Counted from the stretch's first letter, positions 1,165 to 34,562 are shown. The stretch is 64,000 bases of DNA from Nitrospirota bacterium (GCA_963737155.1 CAVTRN010000001.1:128001-192000); one strand, 5' to 3'. Program-made: numbers and translations. Notes: generated by a model from the sequence alone, not told the origin.

Positions 1165-1656
1165 CTATCTTAGCATTTCCTCAATTTCTTTTTCGTACAT
1201 CGGCAGAAACTCCTTGCCGAAACCCCGGTGTACATGTTGTATGATGCCGTTTTTGCCTATAAGGAACCCGGTGGGCAGACCGGAAACACGATAGGCGTCA
1301 TTGACACTGCCTCGTTTATCGAGCAATACGGGAAAGTTTACGGGGAATTTGCGAAGAAAATTCTTTACATCCGATTCAGAAGCATCGACGCTGACGGCGA
1401 TGACTTCGAAGCCCTCATGGTTGAACTTTTTATAGAGACGGTCAAGTTCCGGCAGCTCTTCCCGGCAGGGTGCACACCACGCAGCCCAGAAGGCGAGAAA
1501 AACGATTTTTCCCCTAAAGTCGTCGAGACTCACGGTTTTACCGATTGAATCCGTGAGGGTGAAAGATGGCGCGGTTACGAGAAATTGACCGGCATGGACG
1601 GATGCAGGCATTATCATGAGTATAATCATAATCAACAGAAAAGAATATTTGATCAC
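1165..1656 (-). CDS. TlpA/ResA-like thiol-disulfide oxidoreductase
   Basis: Signal/TM segment, APSFTL, FWAAWCAPCREELP CxxC motif, GLPT cis-Pro motif. Confidence 0.9.
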   Translation of the reverse strand: MIKYSFLLIMIILMIMPASVHAGQFLVTAPSFTLTDSIGKTVSLDDFRGKIVFLAFWAAWCAPCREELPELDRLYKKFNHEGFEVIAVSVDASESDVKNFLRKFPVNFPVLLDKRGSVNDAYRVSGLPTGFLIGKNGIIQHVHRGFGKEFLPMYEKEIEEMLR

Positions 1657-2041: not shown

Positions 2042-2326
2042 TTAAGATTTTGGAGGATGTTCGTCTTGAAAGGCAATTAAGAGAGGTTTAATATGTGGAT
2101 TTACGAATATAGCGCTTTTATCCTGAACAAGAGGCAGATGGCCATAGGGGCATTGATGTAAACAAGGCATGTTCCCGTTGGCAGACAGGGCTGGAGCGGC
2201 TTGATGGCAGACGTCGAGATTGCCGATCATAGCATGATTGCCGTGATCGCTGGGAACCGGGAAAGAGAGTTGAACGGCGATGCTGAGCCCTATTGCTATG
2301 AGCACTATGACAGCTTGCCATTTCAT
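2042..2326 (-). CDS. Small exported Cys/His-rich protein, candidate leader/arrest peptide (DUF2946-like), copy A
   Basis: Hydrophobic N-terminus, LDVCH, PCLHQC, C-terminal EHPPKS; clear paralog of 7008-7292. Confidence 0.75.
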   Translation of the reverse strand: MKWQAVIVLIAIGLSIAVQLSFPVPSDHGNHAMIGNLDVCHQAAPALSANGNMPCLHQCPYGHLPLVQDKSAIFVNPHIKPLLIAFQDEHPPKS

Positions 2327-2615: not shown

Positions 2616-3230
2616 TCATGTGCCAGTGCTGGTCGTCTCTCTGATAACCTTGACCATTTTTTCGGGACTGTCATCCTGATGGAACAAGTAACTCACTTTC
2701 CCCTCTTTGTCGATGAGATAGACGATATCGGTGCGGTTGATAATGTACCCCGCAGCTGATTTGATGGGTATCTTTTGATAAGAAGCATTATAGGCGTGAA
2801 CCACTTTATCGATTTCTGTTTTGTTTCCGGTCAGACCCACGGCGTTGATGTCGAAATATCTCAAATACTCCTTCAGCCTGGCAGAGGTATCGCGTTGTGG
2901 ATCGACCGTTACGAAAACGGTCATTACCTCTTGACTGGCCGCGCCGAGGAGGGTTCGGACCCTGGCCAACTTGTCCAGTGTCAATGGATAAACGCCCGGA
3001 CAAGAGGTATAACCGAAAAACAAAAGAACGACTTTGCCCCGGTGATCCCTGAGATGGAAAATCTGTCCGTTATCCTCTGTAAGGGTAAAATCCCCGCTAG
3101 GATTAAACGCCTGTTCAAGCCTGGTTGGAACTGGCTTTATGGTAGAATAAGCCCAATAGAGACCCAAAATGACCAATAGGATTGTGCCAGTAGCGAACAA
3201 AGATAATGTAAGTTTTTGTTTTGTCCGCAC
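2616..3230 (-). CDS. SCO1/SenC family protein with degenerate copper ligands
   Basis: GDFTLT, LLFFGYTSCPGVYP (CxxxC changed to CxxxY), VTVDPQRD, YIINRT (expected His is Arg); GTG start at 3230 after GGAGG. Confidence 0.8.
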   Translation of the reverse strand: MRTKQKLTLSLFATGTILLVILGLYWAYSTIKPVPTRLEQAFNPSGDFTLTEDNGQIFHLRDHRGKVVLLFFGYTSCPGVYPLTLDKLARVRTLLGAASQEVMTVFVTVDPQRDTSARLKEYLRYFDINAVGLTGNKTEIDKVVHAYNASYQKIPIKSAAGYIINRTDIVYLIDKEGKVSYLFHQDDSPEKMVKVIRETTSTGT

Positions 3231-3251
3231 GTTTCCTCCGTTTCCCAGCAA

Positions 3252-4244: not shown

Positions 4245-4300
4245 TCGAATATTAATCATCATATCTCTTCTGGATTTTTTTTATCGTAAATAATGTTCAT
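4245..4300 (-). pseudogene. 5' remnant of a second split-Soret-like gene
   Basis: ATGAAC...GATAAAAAA...TCCAGAAGAGATATG matches the first codons of 5938-6735 (MN..DKK..SRRDM) but is frameshifted and truncated. Confidence 0.6.
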
Positions 4301-4324: not shown

Positions 4325-4565
4325 ATCGTTAGGTTTTATAACCAACATGCCTGTTCTTCGCACTTGAAACAGTAAAAAAATGGCTCCACTTCAGTAATAT
4401 TCCGGTCTTTAATAGTGAGGTCCGGATATGCTCGAAGTGGAGCCAAGCTTAAAGGGGAGGACAGGCTATGAGTCCCGTCCTCGATGATGCCTTGAGTTGA
4501 TGCATGACCCGCACACATGTCTCTCATGGAGAATAACGTCGGTTCTGTCGTTTGGTTTTAACGAC
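4325..4565 (-). ncRNA. Structured leader element, copy B
   Basis: Aligns along its length with 6763-7005; hairpins GAGGACGGG/CCUGUCCUC and GGCUCCACUUC/GAAGUGGAGCC followed by AUUUUUUU. Confidence 0.65.
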
Positions 4566-4657: not shown

Positions 4658-5380
4658 TTACGGCTTTCCCAGGTTTTCCGCAGCAAAATTCCAGTTAAGG
4701 AGTTTGTCAATAACTGCGTTCACGTAATCAGCGCGCCGGTTCTGATAGTCGAGATAATAGGCATGCTCCCATACATCGATCGTGAGCAGCGGTTTCTTTC
4801 CCTGAGTGATGGGGGTGTCCGCATTGCCTGTCTTGATGACCTTGAGTTTGTCTTGATCCTTCACCAGCCAAGCCCATCCGCTGCCGAATTGGGTTATTGC
4901 CGCGGTCGCCAGCTCTTTCTTGAATGCATCCATACTGCCGAATGATTCCTCGATTATTTTCTTGAGCGCAGCAGGAGGCTCGCCACCGCCACTAGGTTGC
5001 ATGCTCTTCCAATAAAACGCATGGTTCCATGCCTGAGCCGCGTTGTTGAAAATCGCAACTCTGTCCGCTTTGCCGGCTACAGCGGCCACGATCTTCTCAA
5101 GAGGCATCTCAGCAAGATCGGTCCCCGCAATAAGTTTATTCAAGTTGTCGACATAGGCTTTGTGATGTTTTCCATAATGGAATGAAATCGTTTTCGCTGA
5201 AATCACTGGTTCCAGAGCATTCTCTGCATAGGGAAGCGGCGGCAACGCCAGTGGTGCAGATGCATTCGCAATGTGCGGAAATCCCGCAACTGCTGCGGTT
5301 ATAGTCACTCCTGCTGCACCGGCAAGAAAATCTCTTCGGGTGACGCCACTATTGTTCTCTCTATGATCTTGTTGTTCCAT
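4658..5380 (-). CDS. sodB: Fe/Mn superoxide dismutase with Tat signal (periplasmic)
   Basis: TRRDFL twin-arginine leader; [34 protein letters not shown]. Confidence 0.9.
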
Positions 5381-5937: not shown

Positions 5938-6735
5938 TTATGTGCTAGGTATCGAATCGTAAGTCTGCATTGGCGACGGTGGATTCTGGCCGTGGCAGTC
6001 CGCGCAATTGTTCTGAGAGGTAATGCCGTTAGTGAGAACGTTGTAGAGCGGTTTGTGCTTCGGCTTGTACGTGCCGTCCACATAGGCATTCAGCATCGTC
6101 GTCGCTTCCGCGGCCACATTCGCGGCAAGGCGGGCGCACCGTTCCTGTCTTTCGTTGGAAAGGAATGCCGCACCTTCCGCACGCATCCATTTGCCTACGG
6201 AAATGTGGCATACGGGGGTACCCGCCAAGGTCATATGTTTGATTTGCGCTTTCAGCACCTTGGTCGGCGTGAAGCTCGGCAGCTCCGTATAGGAATAATA
6301 GAATGCAAGGTCGTTGACCATAGCTTCAGCAATGTCGGTGTCTTTGGTCACGAGGCCGATAACCACACCAGCTCCTGGCATGGTTCCGCACAGTGCGCCC
6401 CAGCCCGCCATGCCGCCGTGGGCCCAACGGTAGGCATCGATCGGGAAATTACTCCATCCGGCCGCGCCTTTTTTCTTAAGGTTCTCGGCAAAGCCCGCAA
6501 TGACTGATGAGGTGCACCATTTCGCGAAATAGTTTTCATAGGTTGTCTGTGCCACATCCTGCGGGTTGAGCTTTATATACTTATATGAGGCTGCCCCGGA
6601 ATTTTCATAGGCATCGGATTTTTTTACGGCTTGAAGAACACCCATGGTCGCGATTGCGGTCGCAGCGGCAATTTTGCCGCCATTGACCAACATATCTCTT
6701 CTGGACATTTCTTTTTTATCGTCTAAAGGGTTCAT
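5938..6735 (-). CDS. C-GCAxxG-C-C family / split-Soret cytochrome c-like Tat-exported protein
   Basis: Start at 6735 after GGAGG; SRRDML Tat motif; GGMAGWGALCG, PVCHISVGKW, ERCARL, C-terminal CADCH heme motif. Confidence 0.8.
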   Translation of the reverse strand: MNPLDDKKEMSRRDMLVNGGKIAAATAIATMGVLQAVKKSDAYENSGAASYKYIKLNPQDVAQTTYENYFAKWCTSSVIAGFAENLKKKGAAGWSNFPIDAYRWAHGGMAGWGALCGTMPGAGVVIGLVTKDTDIAEAMVNDLAFYYSYTELPSFTPTKVLKAQIKHMTLAGTPVCHISVGKWMRAEGAAFLSNERQERCARLAANVAAEATTMLNAYVDGTYKPKHKPLYNVLTNGITSQNNCADCHGQNPPSPMQTYDSIPST

Positions 6736-6762
6736 GAAGGCCTCCTGATAAATTTTTAATTT

Positions 6763-7005
6763 GTCGTTTAGGTTTAATGACCAATGTCTCTGTTCATCGC
6801 ACCTCGAGCTAAAAAATGACTCCACTCCAGAAATATTCTGGTCTTTGAATAGTGAAGGTCGGATATCCCCGAAGTGGAGTCGAGCTTTAAAGGGGAGGAC
6901 AGGCTATGAGTCCTGTCCTCAGTGATGCCTTGAACAGACGCATGAGTATGCGCACATGCTTCTTTTGAAGAAACACGTTAGCTCTGAACTTCGGTTTTTA
7001 AAGAT
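6763..7005 (-). ncRNA. Structured leader/attenuator element, copy C
   Basis: Lies between the stop of 7008-7292 and the RBS of 6735; several hairpins including GACUCCACUUC/GGAGUGGAGUC followed by AUUUUUU (6811-6881). Confidence 0.7.
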
Positions 7006-7007
7006 GA

Positions 7008-7292
7008 TTAGGACTTCGGAGGACGTTCGTCTTGAAAGGCAATTAAGAGAGGTTTAATACGTATATTTACGATTTCAGCGGTTTTATCTTGAACAACAGG
7101 CAGATGGCCGTAGAGGCATTGATGTAAACAAGGCATGTTCCCGTTGGCAGACAGGGCTGGAACTGCTTGATGGCAGACGTCGAGATTGCCGATCATAGCA
7201 TGCTTGCCGTGATCGCCGGGAACCGAGAAAGAGGGAGGAACGGCGATGCTGATCCCTATTGCCAAGAGCACAATGACAGCCTGCCATTTCAT
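7008..7292 (-). CDS. Small exported Cys/His-rich protein, candidate leader/arrest peptide (DUF2946-like), copy C
   Basis: Paralog of 2042-2326; LDVCH, PCLHQC, C-terminal ERPPKS. Confidence 0.75.
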   Translation of the reverse strand: MKWQAVIVLLAIGISIAVPPSFSVPGDHGKHAMIGNLDVCHQAVPALSANGNMPCLHQCLYGHLPVVQDKTAEIVNIRIKPLLIAFQDERPPKS

Positions 7293-7298
7293 GATAAA

Positions 7299-7327
7299 AC
7301 TATAAATACTTTCCTATCGGTTGTCAA
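7299..7327 (-). promoter_or_regulatory. sigma70 promoter, leaderless mRNA
   Basis: TTGACA-N17-TATAGT-N6-ATG. Confidence 0.75.
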
Positions 7328-7377
7328 CGTAAAGTTGTAATTTTAGAGGGTATTCGTAATTTGGTGTGGGTGGGAGG

Positions 7378-8688
7378 TCAAAAGGCTCCGGACTCAATCA
7401 GTTCTGTTAGTGTGGATATATCCACCCCGTAATTAATTTCCGGCTGATTGTCCAATGTGGATTCCGTCCGGAAACACATTAAGTTATCTGCTGGCCATTT
7501 TTTAAACGCAGATCTTTTAATCTTGTGCATAGATTCTGTGAAGAGAATTTTTGCTCTAAGGGCGTCAAAGGAATAACCACGGCCCAATCGATTCATGACC
7601 CTTATTAAATTGTTGAGAGACTCGGTATAAGCGTTCGTGATTTTATGATCAAAGTACGCAAAAATTTCCTCCTGCCAGTTTTCTGTTGCAGTAATTAATG
7701 GATGGTAGGCTTCGAGAAGATTTTGAGGTATGCTCTGCTGCCATCCGTTATATAAGCCAAGCGCTTCGTTTTTGTCTTTTGCATCCCATATATTGAAGAA
7801 TTGCTCTTTAACCTCGTAAACCTCTTTAATATCCTGATAATTGGCGAACCATGTCGCTAGTATAAGTATTTCTTTTGCAGACAAGTCTTTTTGTCTCTTC
7901 AACAAGACGAATCGATCGTGCATGAGTGTTCGACGTTGGGCTGGCGTGAGAGATTGCCGAATTGATTTACGCACTTTTTCAACCGCCTCGTTTGCCATTC
8001 TGACAACATGAAACTTGTCTATGACTATGGTAGCGTCTGGGAATACTGTATTGACAGCATCTCGATAGGGCTTCCACATATCCATTGCGACATATCGAAC
8101 ACGATCTTTACCATCAAGACCGTTTAGATATTTGATGACAGTCTTTTTATTCCGATCAGGTAAGATATTTACGATTGTGTTGTTCTCGATATTGCTGATG
8201 ACAGCTCTGGGTTTCTTAATAATATGAATCTCATCGATACCCATCCACTGTGGTATCTCGAATCGGACTGTTTTTTCAAGTTCGTTCACATAGTCACGAA
8301 AAATGTTCCGTATAGTACCTTCTGCGACTCCAATCTCATCTGCTATGCTTGTGAAAGTACGGCTAAGTGCCTGGCCGCCGACATATTGAACAAGTCGATC
8401 TGTCATTAGTCTTTTGCTATTTATATGAGGCAGTGCTTCAGTAAAGGTTTTACCGCAGCCCCGGCATTTATACCTACGTACGCCGATATACACGCCTACT
8501 CGCTTGCCATGTATCGTCATATCTTTTACAGTGATGTCATCGGACCCATGCCCTACGACATTATTTGATCCGCAGTGAGGGCATATGGTTGACGGTACCT
8601 TGGTCCTCGCATATATATGATAATCATGCTCTGTTTCTTTGAAATTTATGATCTCATAGGCGTTTAGATTGAGAATATTGATAGGCAT
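7378..8688 (-). CDS. ISL3 family transposase
   Basis: CPHCG and RRYKCRGC zinc finger, GIDE, AMDMWKPY, IDKFHVV, TNAYTESLNN; ATG at 8688 overlaps the HEPN stop codon (TAATG). Confidence 0.95.
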   Translation of the reverse strand: MPINILNLNAYEIINFKETEHDYHIYARTKVPSTICPHCGSNNVVGHGSDDITVKDMTIHGKRVGVYIGVRRYKCRGCGKTFTEALPHINSKRLMTDRLVQYVGGQALSRTFTSIADEIGVAEGTIRNIFRDYVNELEKTVRFEIPQWMGIDEIHIIKKPRAVISNIENNTIVNILPDRNKKTVIKYLNGLDGKDRVRYVAMDMWKPYRDAVNTVFPDATIVIDKFHVVRMANEAVEKVRKSIRQSLTPAQRRTLMHDRFVLLKRQKDLSAKEILILATWFANYQDIKEVYEVKEQFFNIWDAKDKNEALGLYNGWQQSIPQNLLEAYHPLITATENWQEEIFAYFDHKITNAYTESLNNLIRVMNRLGRGYSFDALRAKILFTESMHKIKRSAFKKWPADNLMCFRTESTLDNQPEINYGVDISTLTELIESGAF

Positions 8689-9050
8689 TAGGATTCGACC
8701 TCCGGCGGCGTGGGAGGTATCAACGGCGCAAGATTCTCTATCAGGTTTGGTACATGAAACGTCACCACACTCCACATTTCATCCACACCAATCTTATCGT
8801 ACTCGTGAACTAGCACGTTGCGCTGGGCAATTATCTTGCGCCAAGGAATTTCAGGATGATGCTTTTTAAACGCCTCCGTCACTTTGCGAGCGGCCTCTCC
8901 GATGATCTCGATATTGCGTTCGATGGCATCACGTAGCACCTCGTTTTCAGCAAACTCCTCCTGTTTTATCCCGTTAACAAAACGGCGGACCTTCTCTGCT
9001 GCCTGAAGCATGTCCAGGAGATATGCGGCATCCCGTTCATTAGGCCGCAT
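8688..9050 (-). CDS. hepT: HEPN/DUF86 ribonuclease toxin (HepT-like)
   Basis: YLLDML, IEIIGEAA, PEIPWRKI, RNVLVHEY (RX4H motif plus Tyr). Confidence 0.9.
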   Translation of the reverse strand: MRPNERDAAYLLDMLQAAEKVRRFVNGIKQEEFAENEVLRDAIERNIEIIGEAARKVTEAFKKHHPEIPWRKIIAQRNVLVHEYDKIGVDEMWSVVTFHVPNLIENLAPLIPPTPPEVES

Positions 9051-9521: not shown

Positions 9522-9670
9522 TCAACTTGTATTCGTGGTTATTGAACTTCTTCTGAACTCGTTTGTTTGTAGATGTAGTCGAGTAAAATATAATATTAGC
9601 GAAGGTGCTGAATTCATTTTGTATCATTGTATTTTGTGACATGGTTTTTTGTCAACGACTCCATCCTGAG
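9522..9670. repeat. Dispersed degenerate repeat, copy R1
   Basis: Core TTAGCGAAGGTGCTGAATTCATTTTGTATCATTGTATTTTGTGACATGGTTTT; left part matches 20494-20560. Confidence 0.7.
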
Positions 9671-10680: not shown

Positions 10681-10811
10681 AATCATGCCGGTCTAGGCTC
10701 ATCTCAAACGCTAAAGAGACATAAGTTCTTCCTGTGGCTATGCTTCAACCGGAATCCATTAAAATTTCAATGCATCGAAGCTCCAACAGTTGTAAATGAA
10801 GTCATGCTTCA

Positions 10812-10890
10812 TATATTATTAGCGAAGGTGCAGAACTCATTTTGCATCATTGCATTTCGTGATATGGTTTTCTGTCAATGACTACATCCT
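10812..10890. repeat. Dispersed repeat, copy R2
   Basis: TTAGCGAAGGTGCAGAACTCATTTTGCATCATTGCATTTCGTGATATGGTTTTCTGTCAATGACTACATCCT. Confidence 0.75.
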
Positions 10891-34349: not shown

Positions 34350-34530
34350 TAAGAACGGCCTAAAGTCATAATCAGTAAACTTAAAAAAGATGTCAGGGAA
34401 GAGGAGTGAAATTCTCCCGCTGCCCCGCAGCCGTGAAGGGAACGAAAACCCAAAAGCAAGCCACTGTCATGAGTAATATCATGATGGGAAGGCGGGTTAG
34501 TAGGATTAAGCCCTAAGCCGGAAGACCTTC
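34350..34530 (+). ncRNA. Cobalamin riboswitch (boundaries approximate)
   Basis: AGGGAA, GTGAAATTC, GCTGCCCCGCAGCCGT, GCCACTG...GGGAAGGC, B12-box AGCCGGAAGACC. Confidence 0.9.
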
Positions 34531-34562
34531 AAAAATTAAATTCCCGCGGGAGGAGTTAAAAG

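Follow-up and report, generated by a model that had tools for sequence, protein, structure and literature searches.

Ribosome-mediated attenuators of the classical kind, such as the trp, his, pyrBI and antibiotic-sensing leaders, have cytoplasmic leader peptides of 14-30 codons that sense charged tRNA, nucleotide supply or drugs, with an anti-antiterminator under the ribosome. Sensing by a nascent, exported peptide is a more recent principle (CruR in 2022, CutF in 2023), with two read-outs shown so far. In the parts of the two sources drawn on here, CutF of Rhodobacter capsulatus heads an operon of envelope metal and redox genes and acts in cis while it is being made, unmasking a ribosome-binding site that a short stem-loop sequesters (PMC9973294), and CruR of Bordetella pertussis (Bp2923, DUF2946) carries an R-A-P-P motif at a conserved spacing from its Cys motif, with Rho-dependent termination after the leader and ahead of the following gene (PMC9426467). 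Here we describe a related arrangement in a 64,000-nucleotide (nt) stretch from a Nitrospirota bacterium (GCA_963737155.1 CAVTRN010000001.1:128001-192000; hereafter the window, with positions counted from its first letter), where a structured RNA, copy C (6763-7005), lies between a 94-codon open reading frame (ORF) and a gene for an envelope redox protein. All features given below are on the minus strand unless marked otherwise. The RNA is the conserved 3' part of a small leader-gene module and not a free-standing element, the order of the module being promoter, 94-codon Cys/His-peptide gene, structured RNA and then a TlpA-like, split-Soret-like, NosL or outer-membrane gene. The RNA probably decides between a stop and read-through into envelope redox and copper genes, and its most likely function is that of a conditional terminator serving a sensor-like leader gene.

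The leader gene and the RNA that follows it

The gene at the head of the module, small ORF C (7008..7292, 94 codons), encodes an N-terminal hydrophobic helix, invariant D-x-C-H and M-P motifs and the end ERPPK-S-stop, and it returned no Pfam or NCBIfam match in profile searches. The family to which it belongs has 44 protein clusters; each carries the label hypothetical, and 35 are exactly 94 amino acids long. The protein is conserved over its full length (47-85% identity), with M1, D38, C40, H41, P54, P91 and P92 invariant in the family alignment and with nearly invariant ends, MKWQAVIVLLAIAL at the N-terminus and FQDERPPK plus one residue, then the stop, at the C-terminus. Entropy by codon position is 0.78/0.62/1.33 across 75 distinct ORFs, a coding signature from which the frame is taken to be translated. 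AlphaFold2 gives a helix at residues 2-17 and a predicted local distance difference test (pLDDT) below 50 for the rest (mean 52), and the protein is accordingly modelled as an N-terminal membrane-targeting helix with an otherwise disordered body of fixed length; the signal-peptide call is this hydrophobic helix 2-17 and not the output of a dedicated predictor. At the end of the gene synonymous sites are nearly fixed at codons 86-90 (7023-7037) and 93, the counts among the 75 ORFs being TTT 70, CAA 73, GAA 74 and, for codon 93, AAA 69. This suggests an RNA-level constraint on the last 30 nt of the ORF, for which no pairing partner was found. The Pro-Pro codons read CCUCC in 41 of the 75 ORFs, like the family-wide C-rich motif of the RNA described below.

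The two best promoter-like sites of the window, each with 11 of 12 matches, are the promoters of module C and of a second module, A. That of module C (7299..7327) is of the sigma-70 type, with TTGACA and TATAGT separated by 17 nt, and that of small ORF A lies at 2333-2361. Among relatives TTGACN is present at 80 of 80 distinct loci, with a -10 hexamer 16-18 nt away at 77, and the gap from the -10 to the ATG is 6 nt in 53 and 5-7 nt in 65 of these 77. As the -10 ends 6 nt before the ATG, the mRNA is predicted to be leaderless, starting at the ATG or 1-2 bases from it. Directly upstream of the -35, here and at most related loci, lies a conserved A/T box (AAAATTnnAACTTT, 7330..7343; column conservation 0.6-0.8 at positions -52 to -39 of the related loci) that could be an UP element or a transcription-factor operator. 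The window scan found no terminator-like site within the small ORF, and the ORF and the RNA element would share one transcript.

The minimum free energy (MFE) fold of copy C reaches -84.6 kcal/mol (z-score -6.67; 0 of 200 shuffles as good) and contains every stem that an initial annotation of the window had named, CGUGUUUCUU/AAGAAGCAUG, GCGCAU/AUGCGU, UCUGUUCA/UGAACAGA, GAGGACAGG/CCUGUCCUC and a long hairpin followed by UUUUUU. Across the family the element is ~190-240 nt long and occurs as a short type (P0, P1, P2 and the terminator) and as at least three long types with an additional hairpin, P3; the window RNA is of one long type, which also carries a 3' extension. Taking "paired" as the share of alignment cells with pairable bases and a "both-sides change" as a compensatory pair, 9 close relatives of the window type, scored on the copy C MFE structure, are 85.4% paired with 8 both-sides changes (2 of 500 shuffles as high), 22 short-type sequences are 95.4% paired with 9 (0 of 500), and 62 distinct family members are 92.9% paired with 23 (0 of 500), so that homologues do covary in the helices first drawn from the window. 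In the window type the best support falls on P2 (6938..6953, GCGCAU/AUGCGU; 92.5% paired, 2 compensatory pairs), P3 (6895..6920; 96.3% paired) and the terminator; P1 (6955..6977) is 84.8% paired with 1 compensatory pair, and weaker support is found for the long-range helix of 6789-6796 with 6931-6938 (70% paired) and for the outer stem (80% paired) that joins the region just past the stop codon to the 3' extension (6763..6810), a segment of this type only, present in read-through RNA alone. P2 accounts for 6 of the 9 changed pairs of the short type, where 6 of the 9 pairs in its main helix covary.

The long hairpin (6818..6881) is present in the fold and covaries both within the window type and family-wide, pair 256:345 of the 62-member alignment being GC in 43 and AU in 15. 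It is followed by a U-tract (6811..6816), and at least 5 U are found in the 9 nt past the stem in 54 of the 62 members. The features of an intrinsic terminator are thus present in the hairpin and UUUUUU of copy C and in U-tracts across the family, and we refer to it as a predicted terminator; a simple terminator scan did not list the copy C hairpin because of its loop limit of 8 nt. The U-tracts end at 6811 in copy C and at 4374 in copy B, as the initial annotation had them. The same annotation had read the second pair of the long hairpin as compensatory between copies B (GGCUCC/GGAGCC) and C (GACUCC/GGAGUC). The difference is real in the alignment, but family-wide the pair is GU in 22, GC in 17, AU in 11 and other in 10, so the change is compatible with the helix by way of G-U and is not a clean double switch. 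Upstream of the hairpin, the 3' arm of P3 runs into a C-rich motif found family-wide, CCUCCCC (6892-6898).

These properties bear on a reading without any switch, in which an ordinary, possibly leaky terminator and structured 3' untranslated region (3' UTR) belong to a real small envelope protein, and which would fix the ratio of small to downstream protein, stabilise the mRNA or give rise to a small RNA, cut from the 3' UTR, that would pair with ribosome-binding sites through its C-rich motif. Regulatory small RNAs usually combine a terminator with an exposed C-rich motif; here the terminator features are canonical, the small protein is conserved as a whole and not in its tail alone, and copy B, which stands behind an unrelated superoxide dismutase gene, could act as a plain terminator. 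Against such a reading the peptide is predicted to be disordered past its first helix, and start codons lie 18-30 nt past the U-tract at loci L156 and L153, so that genes downstream need read-through. We consider it rather unlikely; were it true, there would remain a new family of small proteins and a terminator of unusual sequence conservation, a modest result.

At most of the loci compared the RNA is linked to the small gene. It begins at the ORF stop codon for copy C, copy A and a fourth copy elsewhere in the genome. The small protein alone was used to fetch 40 loci from genomes, all of them metagenome-assembled genomes (MAGs) labelled Nitrospirota, Nitrospirae, Nitrospiria or Thermodesulfovibrionales, and 80 from metagenomes; R1, a covariance model built from 22 short-type elements, matches 79 of 98 plus 7 of 22 of them, 86 of the 120 in all, on the ORF strand and almost always from the stop codon (hand count). 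Searched for by itself at E <= 0.001, R1 is found in 16 of 151 genomes sampled across Nitrospirota, which with the genome of the window set aside comprise 12 of the 27 genomes of its own family and one in each of three other families. Outside that genome a small-ORF homologue on the same strand immediately precedes 16 of 17 R1 matches, among them matches from two of the other families. The sequence of the terminator stem and a short box complementary to it, described below, are kept across bacterial families where the peptide falls to ~30% identity. More divergent small-ORF homologues (27-44% identity; L127-L134, L047 and L049) mostly stand without the element, 60-130 nt ahead of a TlpA-like gene, and may represent a simpler, CutF-style arrangement of the same leader.

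Box, terminator and the proposed switch

A candidate antiterminator strand, box a (CCGAAGU, 6988..6994), lies 14 nt past the stop codon of small ORF C and, in the family, 11-28 nt from the first base of the stop codon, mostly 14-19. Its complement, RCUUCGG, lies within the terminator 5' arm (in copy C box b, ACUUCGG, 6869-6875), and the two can form 7/7 pairs in 47 of 58 rows; the a:b cells are 96.3% paired against 20-44% when the partner is slid. Folded as nascent RNA up to the terminator loop, 42 of 55 elements hold a:b in the MFE structure with a mean pair probability of 0.76, and copy C reaches 0.99; when the 3' arm is added the terminator is present in 42 of 55 and replaces a:b. The layout would be that of an antiterminator and a terminator. 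Since P0 and the inner hairpins all lie inside a:b, the RNA in its read-through state would form a single closed domain, to which the terminator arm contributes the 3' strand. Taken in full, the 5' region is a copy, though an imperfect one, of the terminator 3' arm, and in two distant members, L153 (z -5.7) and L156 (z -3.7), it can pair along the entire arm. A plain terminator would not be expected to keep its stem sequence and a box across families at ~30% peptide identity, nor does it account for box a/arm complementarity in 47 of 58 rows, although the lack of covariation in a:b is in its favour.

The same layout may be read as a riboswitch or protein-binding switch of the ON type that works independently of translation. 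Here a:b would close an aptamer-like domain (P0, P1 and P2, with or without P3), and a metal ion or small molecule, or a protein recognising the C-rich motif, would stabilise a:b and block the terminator. The terminator 5' arm doubles as the 3' strand of a:b, the classic layout of such switches, the stems covary, the motifs CCUCCCC and AAGCUCG are conserved and unpaired, and box a lies beyond the footprint of a ribosome at the ORF end. The inner architecture, however, is not conserved in the manner of a ligand pocket: P3 is missing from the short type, and the C-rich motif shifts from the loop of P1 to an arm of P3, which would be unusual. Furthermore, 16 of 17 genome matches link the element to the small ORF, no single downstream family accompanies it throughout, and it has no match in Rfam. 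With Rfam 15 at gathering scores the whole window gave no match at the RNA copies, and at E <= 1 eight loci including that of copy C gave none. The only Rfam match in the window is a cobalamin riboswitch at 34361-34545 on the plus strand (74 bits against a gathering score of 31.5). We judge an ON switch of this kind quite improbable, and regard the small gene as the likeliest sensor, more so than a small-molecule aptamer.

For a conditional terminator that serves the leader gene we propose the following course of events. Transcription would start at or near the ATG of the 94-codon gene. As the RNA is made, nascent box a would hold the 5' arm of the terminator, which it can do during synthesis because it is complementary to that arm, closing the inner hairpins into one domain; with the domain closed, the polymerase would continue into the redox and copper genes of the envelope. 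Where the 3' arm of the terminator wins instead, transcription would stop at the U-tract. The choice would be set by the ribosome finishing the small gene, through stalling or release at the Pro-Pro codons, and the state of that ribosome would report what the exported Cys/His part of the peptide meets outside the cytoplasm. The chances that the RNA is a translation-coupled transcription attenuator following a sensor-like leader gene appear to us about even. A fuller version, in which a leaderless, co-translationally exported Cys/His peptide stalls its ribosome at ERPPK by an arrest of non-RAPP kind and thereby gates an intrinsic terminator via the antiterminator in a Nitrospirota-wide regulon, is more tentative, and we would sooner expect some part of it to fail than all of it to hold. 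If true, the regulon would consist of periplasmic thiol-redox, cytochrome, copper-chaperone and outer-membrane genes.

Several observations weigh against this model. Termination, read-through and its regulation, the leaderless start, the signal and a coupling to translation are all predictions, and the link from ribosome to fold is the weak point of the model. A search for sequencing runs listed 8, all of DNA from soil metagenomes and none of RNA. Box a and its partner show no both-sides change in 62 sequences, so the case for their pairing is one of conservation, and the box is perhaps conserved for another reason; both strands are almost invariant, which is why covariation proof of a:b was not obtained. 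In four distant members (L150, L152, L154 and L155) even the best duplex of the 5' region with the arm does not stand out from shuffles (32-75 of 300), and L159 has no such duplex at all. The inner architecture varies by type, with two or three hairpins. An anti-antiterminator beneath the stall site was sought by helix scans for each type and by folding with the end of the ORF either free or masked; the results were specific to a type or weak, and no such segment is shared by all types. Box a lies beyond the footprint of a ribosome on the Pro-Pro codons. Masking the ORF end raised the mean probability of a:b only from 0.63 to 0.80. For copy C the effect of masking was traced to a second copy of the 7-nt box within the ORF (7012..7018, codons 92-94), present in some members only, which pairs with the 5' arm of the terminator when the ORF end is left free in the folds. 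ERPPK lacks the Ala or Gly of the proven R-[AG]-P-P arrest motifs described in the parts of PMC12992588 and PMC10987492 consulted, and the peptide has no detectable homology to DUF2946. Finally, spacers of 60-125 nt at many loci, by a noisy heuristic, could hold promoters that escaped detection.

Copies in the window and downstream genes

The initial annotation had treated three minus-strand RNAs of the window as copies of one motif. Copies C, B (4325-4565) and A (1893-2039) are indeed related, sharing two three-copy repeat families (1990-2039/4516-4565/6955-7004 and 1900-1940/4331-4371/6770-6810) and one two-copy family (4449-4507/6887-6945) in the repeat search, with a mean column identity of 74% when aligned. 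They are not equivalent, however, as only copy C keeps the complementarity of box and terminator. The proposal of an attenuator or riboswitch-like leader likewise survives in part: a structured RNA with a terminator-like hairpin does precede the genes, but it begins at the stop codon of a small ORF and is not a stand-alone 5' leader. That no known riboswitch had been recognised agrees with the Rfam searches above.

Copy B scores 28.5 bits with R1, against 56.6 bits for copy C, and folds at -77.5 kcal/mol (z -3.99; 0 of 200 shuffles as good). It has kept its terminator hairpin (4382-4444) and U-tract (4374-4380), its box a (4549-4555) is degenerate and forms 3/7 pairs with its own box b, and no small ORF lies upstream, the copy sitting after a gene for an Fe/Mn superoxide dismutase. 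Downstream of it the repeats reveal what is left of a split-Soret-like gene, 13 codons from its 5' end (4259..4300). Copy B is a displaced fragment that may now be a terminator only. Copy A follows small ORF A (2042..2326), a paralogue whose protein is 83% identical to that of C within a nucleotide repeat of 89%. It keeps P1, P2 and the 3' extension, and in the three-copy alignment it lacks a central block of ~86 columns that holds P3 and most of the long hairpin, which bears out its earlier description as a derivative without a terminator. Since P3 and the terminator have been lost by deletion, copy A would read through to the TlpA-like thiol:disulfide oxidoreductase gene downstream of it (1165..1656; profile search). 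R1 does not detect copy A, and as 10 of 200 shuffles match the energy of its fold (-37.3 kcal/mol, z -1.90), copy A alone is not clearly structured. The fourth copy, on another contig of the same genome (G000:C2:2911928-2912151), is weak at 21.6 bits with R1; it begins at the stop codon of a small ORF (L003) and its box pairs 4/7. The whole 4.8-Mb genome holds these four copies only, and of them copy C alone has promoter, ORF, intact box, intact arm, terminator and whole downstream gene; by its sequence it looks to be the one intact copy in this genome.

Three copies in 5.2 kb, adjoined by an ISL3 transposase and including two damaged derivatives, A and B, with short terminal complementarity (GUCGUU/AACGAC), might also be taken for a functionless mobile or duplicated repeat, that is, a miniature inverted-repeat transposable element (MITE) or a segmental duplication. 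Such a repeat would not be expected to number only four copies in a 4.8-Mb genome, to keep a fixed position directly after a small ORF in relatives, to show compensatory changes in its helices or to be present in several genera and families, and inspection by eye, short of a formal test, showed no target-site duplications at copies A, B and C. We hold this explanation to be highly implausible, and the MITE that the initial annotation had named as grounds for dropping a leader is not what the copy number and fixed position describe. The ISL3-family transposase gene (7378-8775) ends ~50 nt upstream of the small ORF C promoter, and the transposase may have been involved in the local duplications. 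Modules in tandem within a few kb are also seen in other genomes, at L019 (ORF ends at 558 and 2785), L027 (2785 and 4655) and L042 (184-313 and 2784). Elsewhere in the window a direct repeat of 101 nt with 82% identity joins 9567-9667 and 10790-10890.

The three copies are interleaved with envelope copper and redox genes. Downstream of copy C lies a gene (5938..6735) for a C_GCAxxG_C_C protein with a twin-arginine translocation (Tat) signal, resembling split-Soret cytochrome c (PF09719, 32.7 bits; NF047622, 119 bits against a cut-off of 400). A 295-residue ORF at 5938-6825 that would run over the element was rejected as an upstream extension, the real gene beginning at 6735 with a ribosome-binding site. 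Near the copies are also SCO1/SenC (2616-3251) and the Tat-signal Fe/Mn superoxide dismutase (4658-5380). The ATG downstream of copy C is 75 nt past the U-tract, the window promoter scan found no promoter-like site in this spacer, and only 18 nt in L156 and 30 nt in L153 separate the U-tract from the start codon that follows; as these spacers are short or free of promoter-like sites, the downstream genes would depend on read-through at least in L156, L153 and copy C. The automatic start-codon picker was noisy, and distances from the U-tract were used only where they could be read directly. Among 92 first downstream ORFs, 31 are TlpA-like (AhpC-TSA/Redoxin/Thioredoxin) and 16 are C_GCAxxG_C_C split-Soret-like, with NosL, outer-membrane barrel and FtsX/MacB proteins at 2 each and TonB plug and FG-GAP at 1 each; 37 have no Pfam family, some of these being spurious short ORFs. 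The module thus offers a handle on the control of TlpA-like, split-Soret-like, NosL and outer-membrane genes in uncultured Nitrospirota of soil and sediment, genes with a bearing on electron transfer, periplasmic or extracellular, and on the supply of copper.

Comparison with known leader systems

A search of the literature on Nitrospirota and riboswitches gave nothing relevant by title or abstract, and the closest systems are found among the leaders of other bacteria. The module resembles the classical ribosome-mediated attenuators in its leader ORF, which is taken to be translated, in its predicted intrinsic terminator and in a candidate upstream strand that would compete for the 5' arm. Unlike them, its leader has 94 codons, is targeted to the membrane and is conserved as a protein, and scans by type found no anti-antiterminator.

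A second point of reference is the arrest peptides that monitor export. The part of PMC10987492 that we draw on searched for these as small unannotated upstream ORFs with an N-terminal signal or transmembrane segment, a conserved C-terminus and a spacer of more than 30 residues, and the small peptide has all of these properties. It is not a member of the RAPP-like class, as the R-[AG]-P-P core (or RAGP/RAPG) is not present and the sequence is E-R-P-P-K. It therefore differs from the RAPP-like arrest peptides and monitoring substrates SecM, MifM and ApdA/ApdP, as covered in part by PMC12992588, in having R-P-P in place of R-[AG]-P-P. It also differs from SecM, MifM and ApdA/ApdP in its downstream genes, which are not Sec or YidC components.

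With CruR, as far as the consulted parts of PMC9426467 describe it, the module shares a leader ORF with a spacing of fixed length from Cys to Pro-Pro and a control by transcription termination. It differs in its terminator, a hairpin and U-tract here and Rho in CruR, and in its motif, E-R-P-P-K here and R-A-P-P in CruR. Membership of DUF2946 (PF11162) was considered and rejected: 0 of 32 family members match at E <= 10, the module's own genome gives no match, a profile comparison with a true member by hhalign returned a probability of 0.2%, and the motifs D-x-C-H and E-R-P-P-K stand against the CXXC and RAPP of DUF2946. The named families among the language-model neighbours of the peptide, DUF2946, DUF6769, DUF6660 and CzcI, are taken as a lead only. 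A true DUF2946 protein of 132 amino acids, ending in ...SRGPPSALS and adjoining a His-rich HMA-like protein, is encoded in another genome of the set (L162:1486-1884, genome G031), so that the classical CruR-type leader is also present in Nitrospirota.

The closest resemblance is to CutF, again within the parts of PMC9973294 considered. The rule given there for CutF-like proteins is a length below 150 amino acids, PP among the final 15 residues, a putative signal peptide at the N-terminus, a Cys/His motif and a gene located downstream in the same orientation within 1000 nt, and the small peptide falls within it. As in CutF, a small protein with an export signal, Cys/His residues and a C-terminal Pro-Pro is followed by a structured RNA before the next gene, although profile comparisons found no sequence homology between the small peptide and CutF. 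Unlike in CutF, the RNA is ~190-240 nt long with an intrinsic terminator and a competing upstream strand, the mRNA is predicted to be leaderless, and the downstream gene is TlpA-like or split-Soret-like where CutF has a multicopper oxidase. A read-out by an intrinsic terminator is not described in the examined parts of PMC9973294 and PMC9426467.

The logic of the proposed model would therefore be that of CutF and CruR, with an intrinsic terminator in the place of a masked ribosome-binding site or of Rho. Because a covarying RNA family of 62 sequences is here combined with a peptide family unrelated in sequence, the generality of nascent-chain sensing can be tested directly. If the model is correct, the module would provide a third read-out for nascent-chain sensors of metal or redox state, beside the unmasking of a ribosome-binding site in CutF and Rho-dependent termination in CruR.

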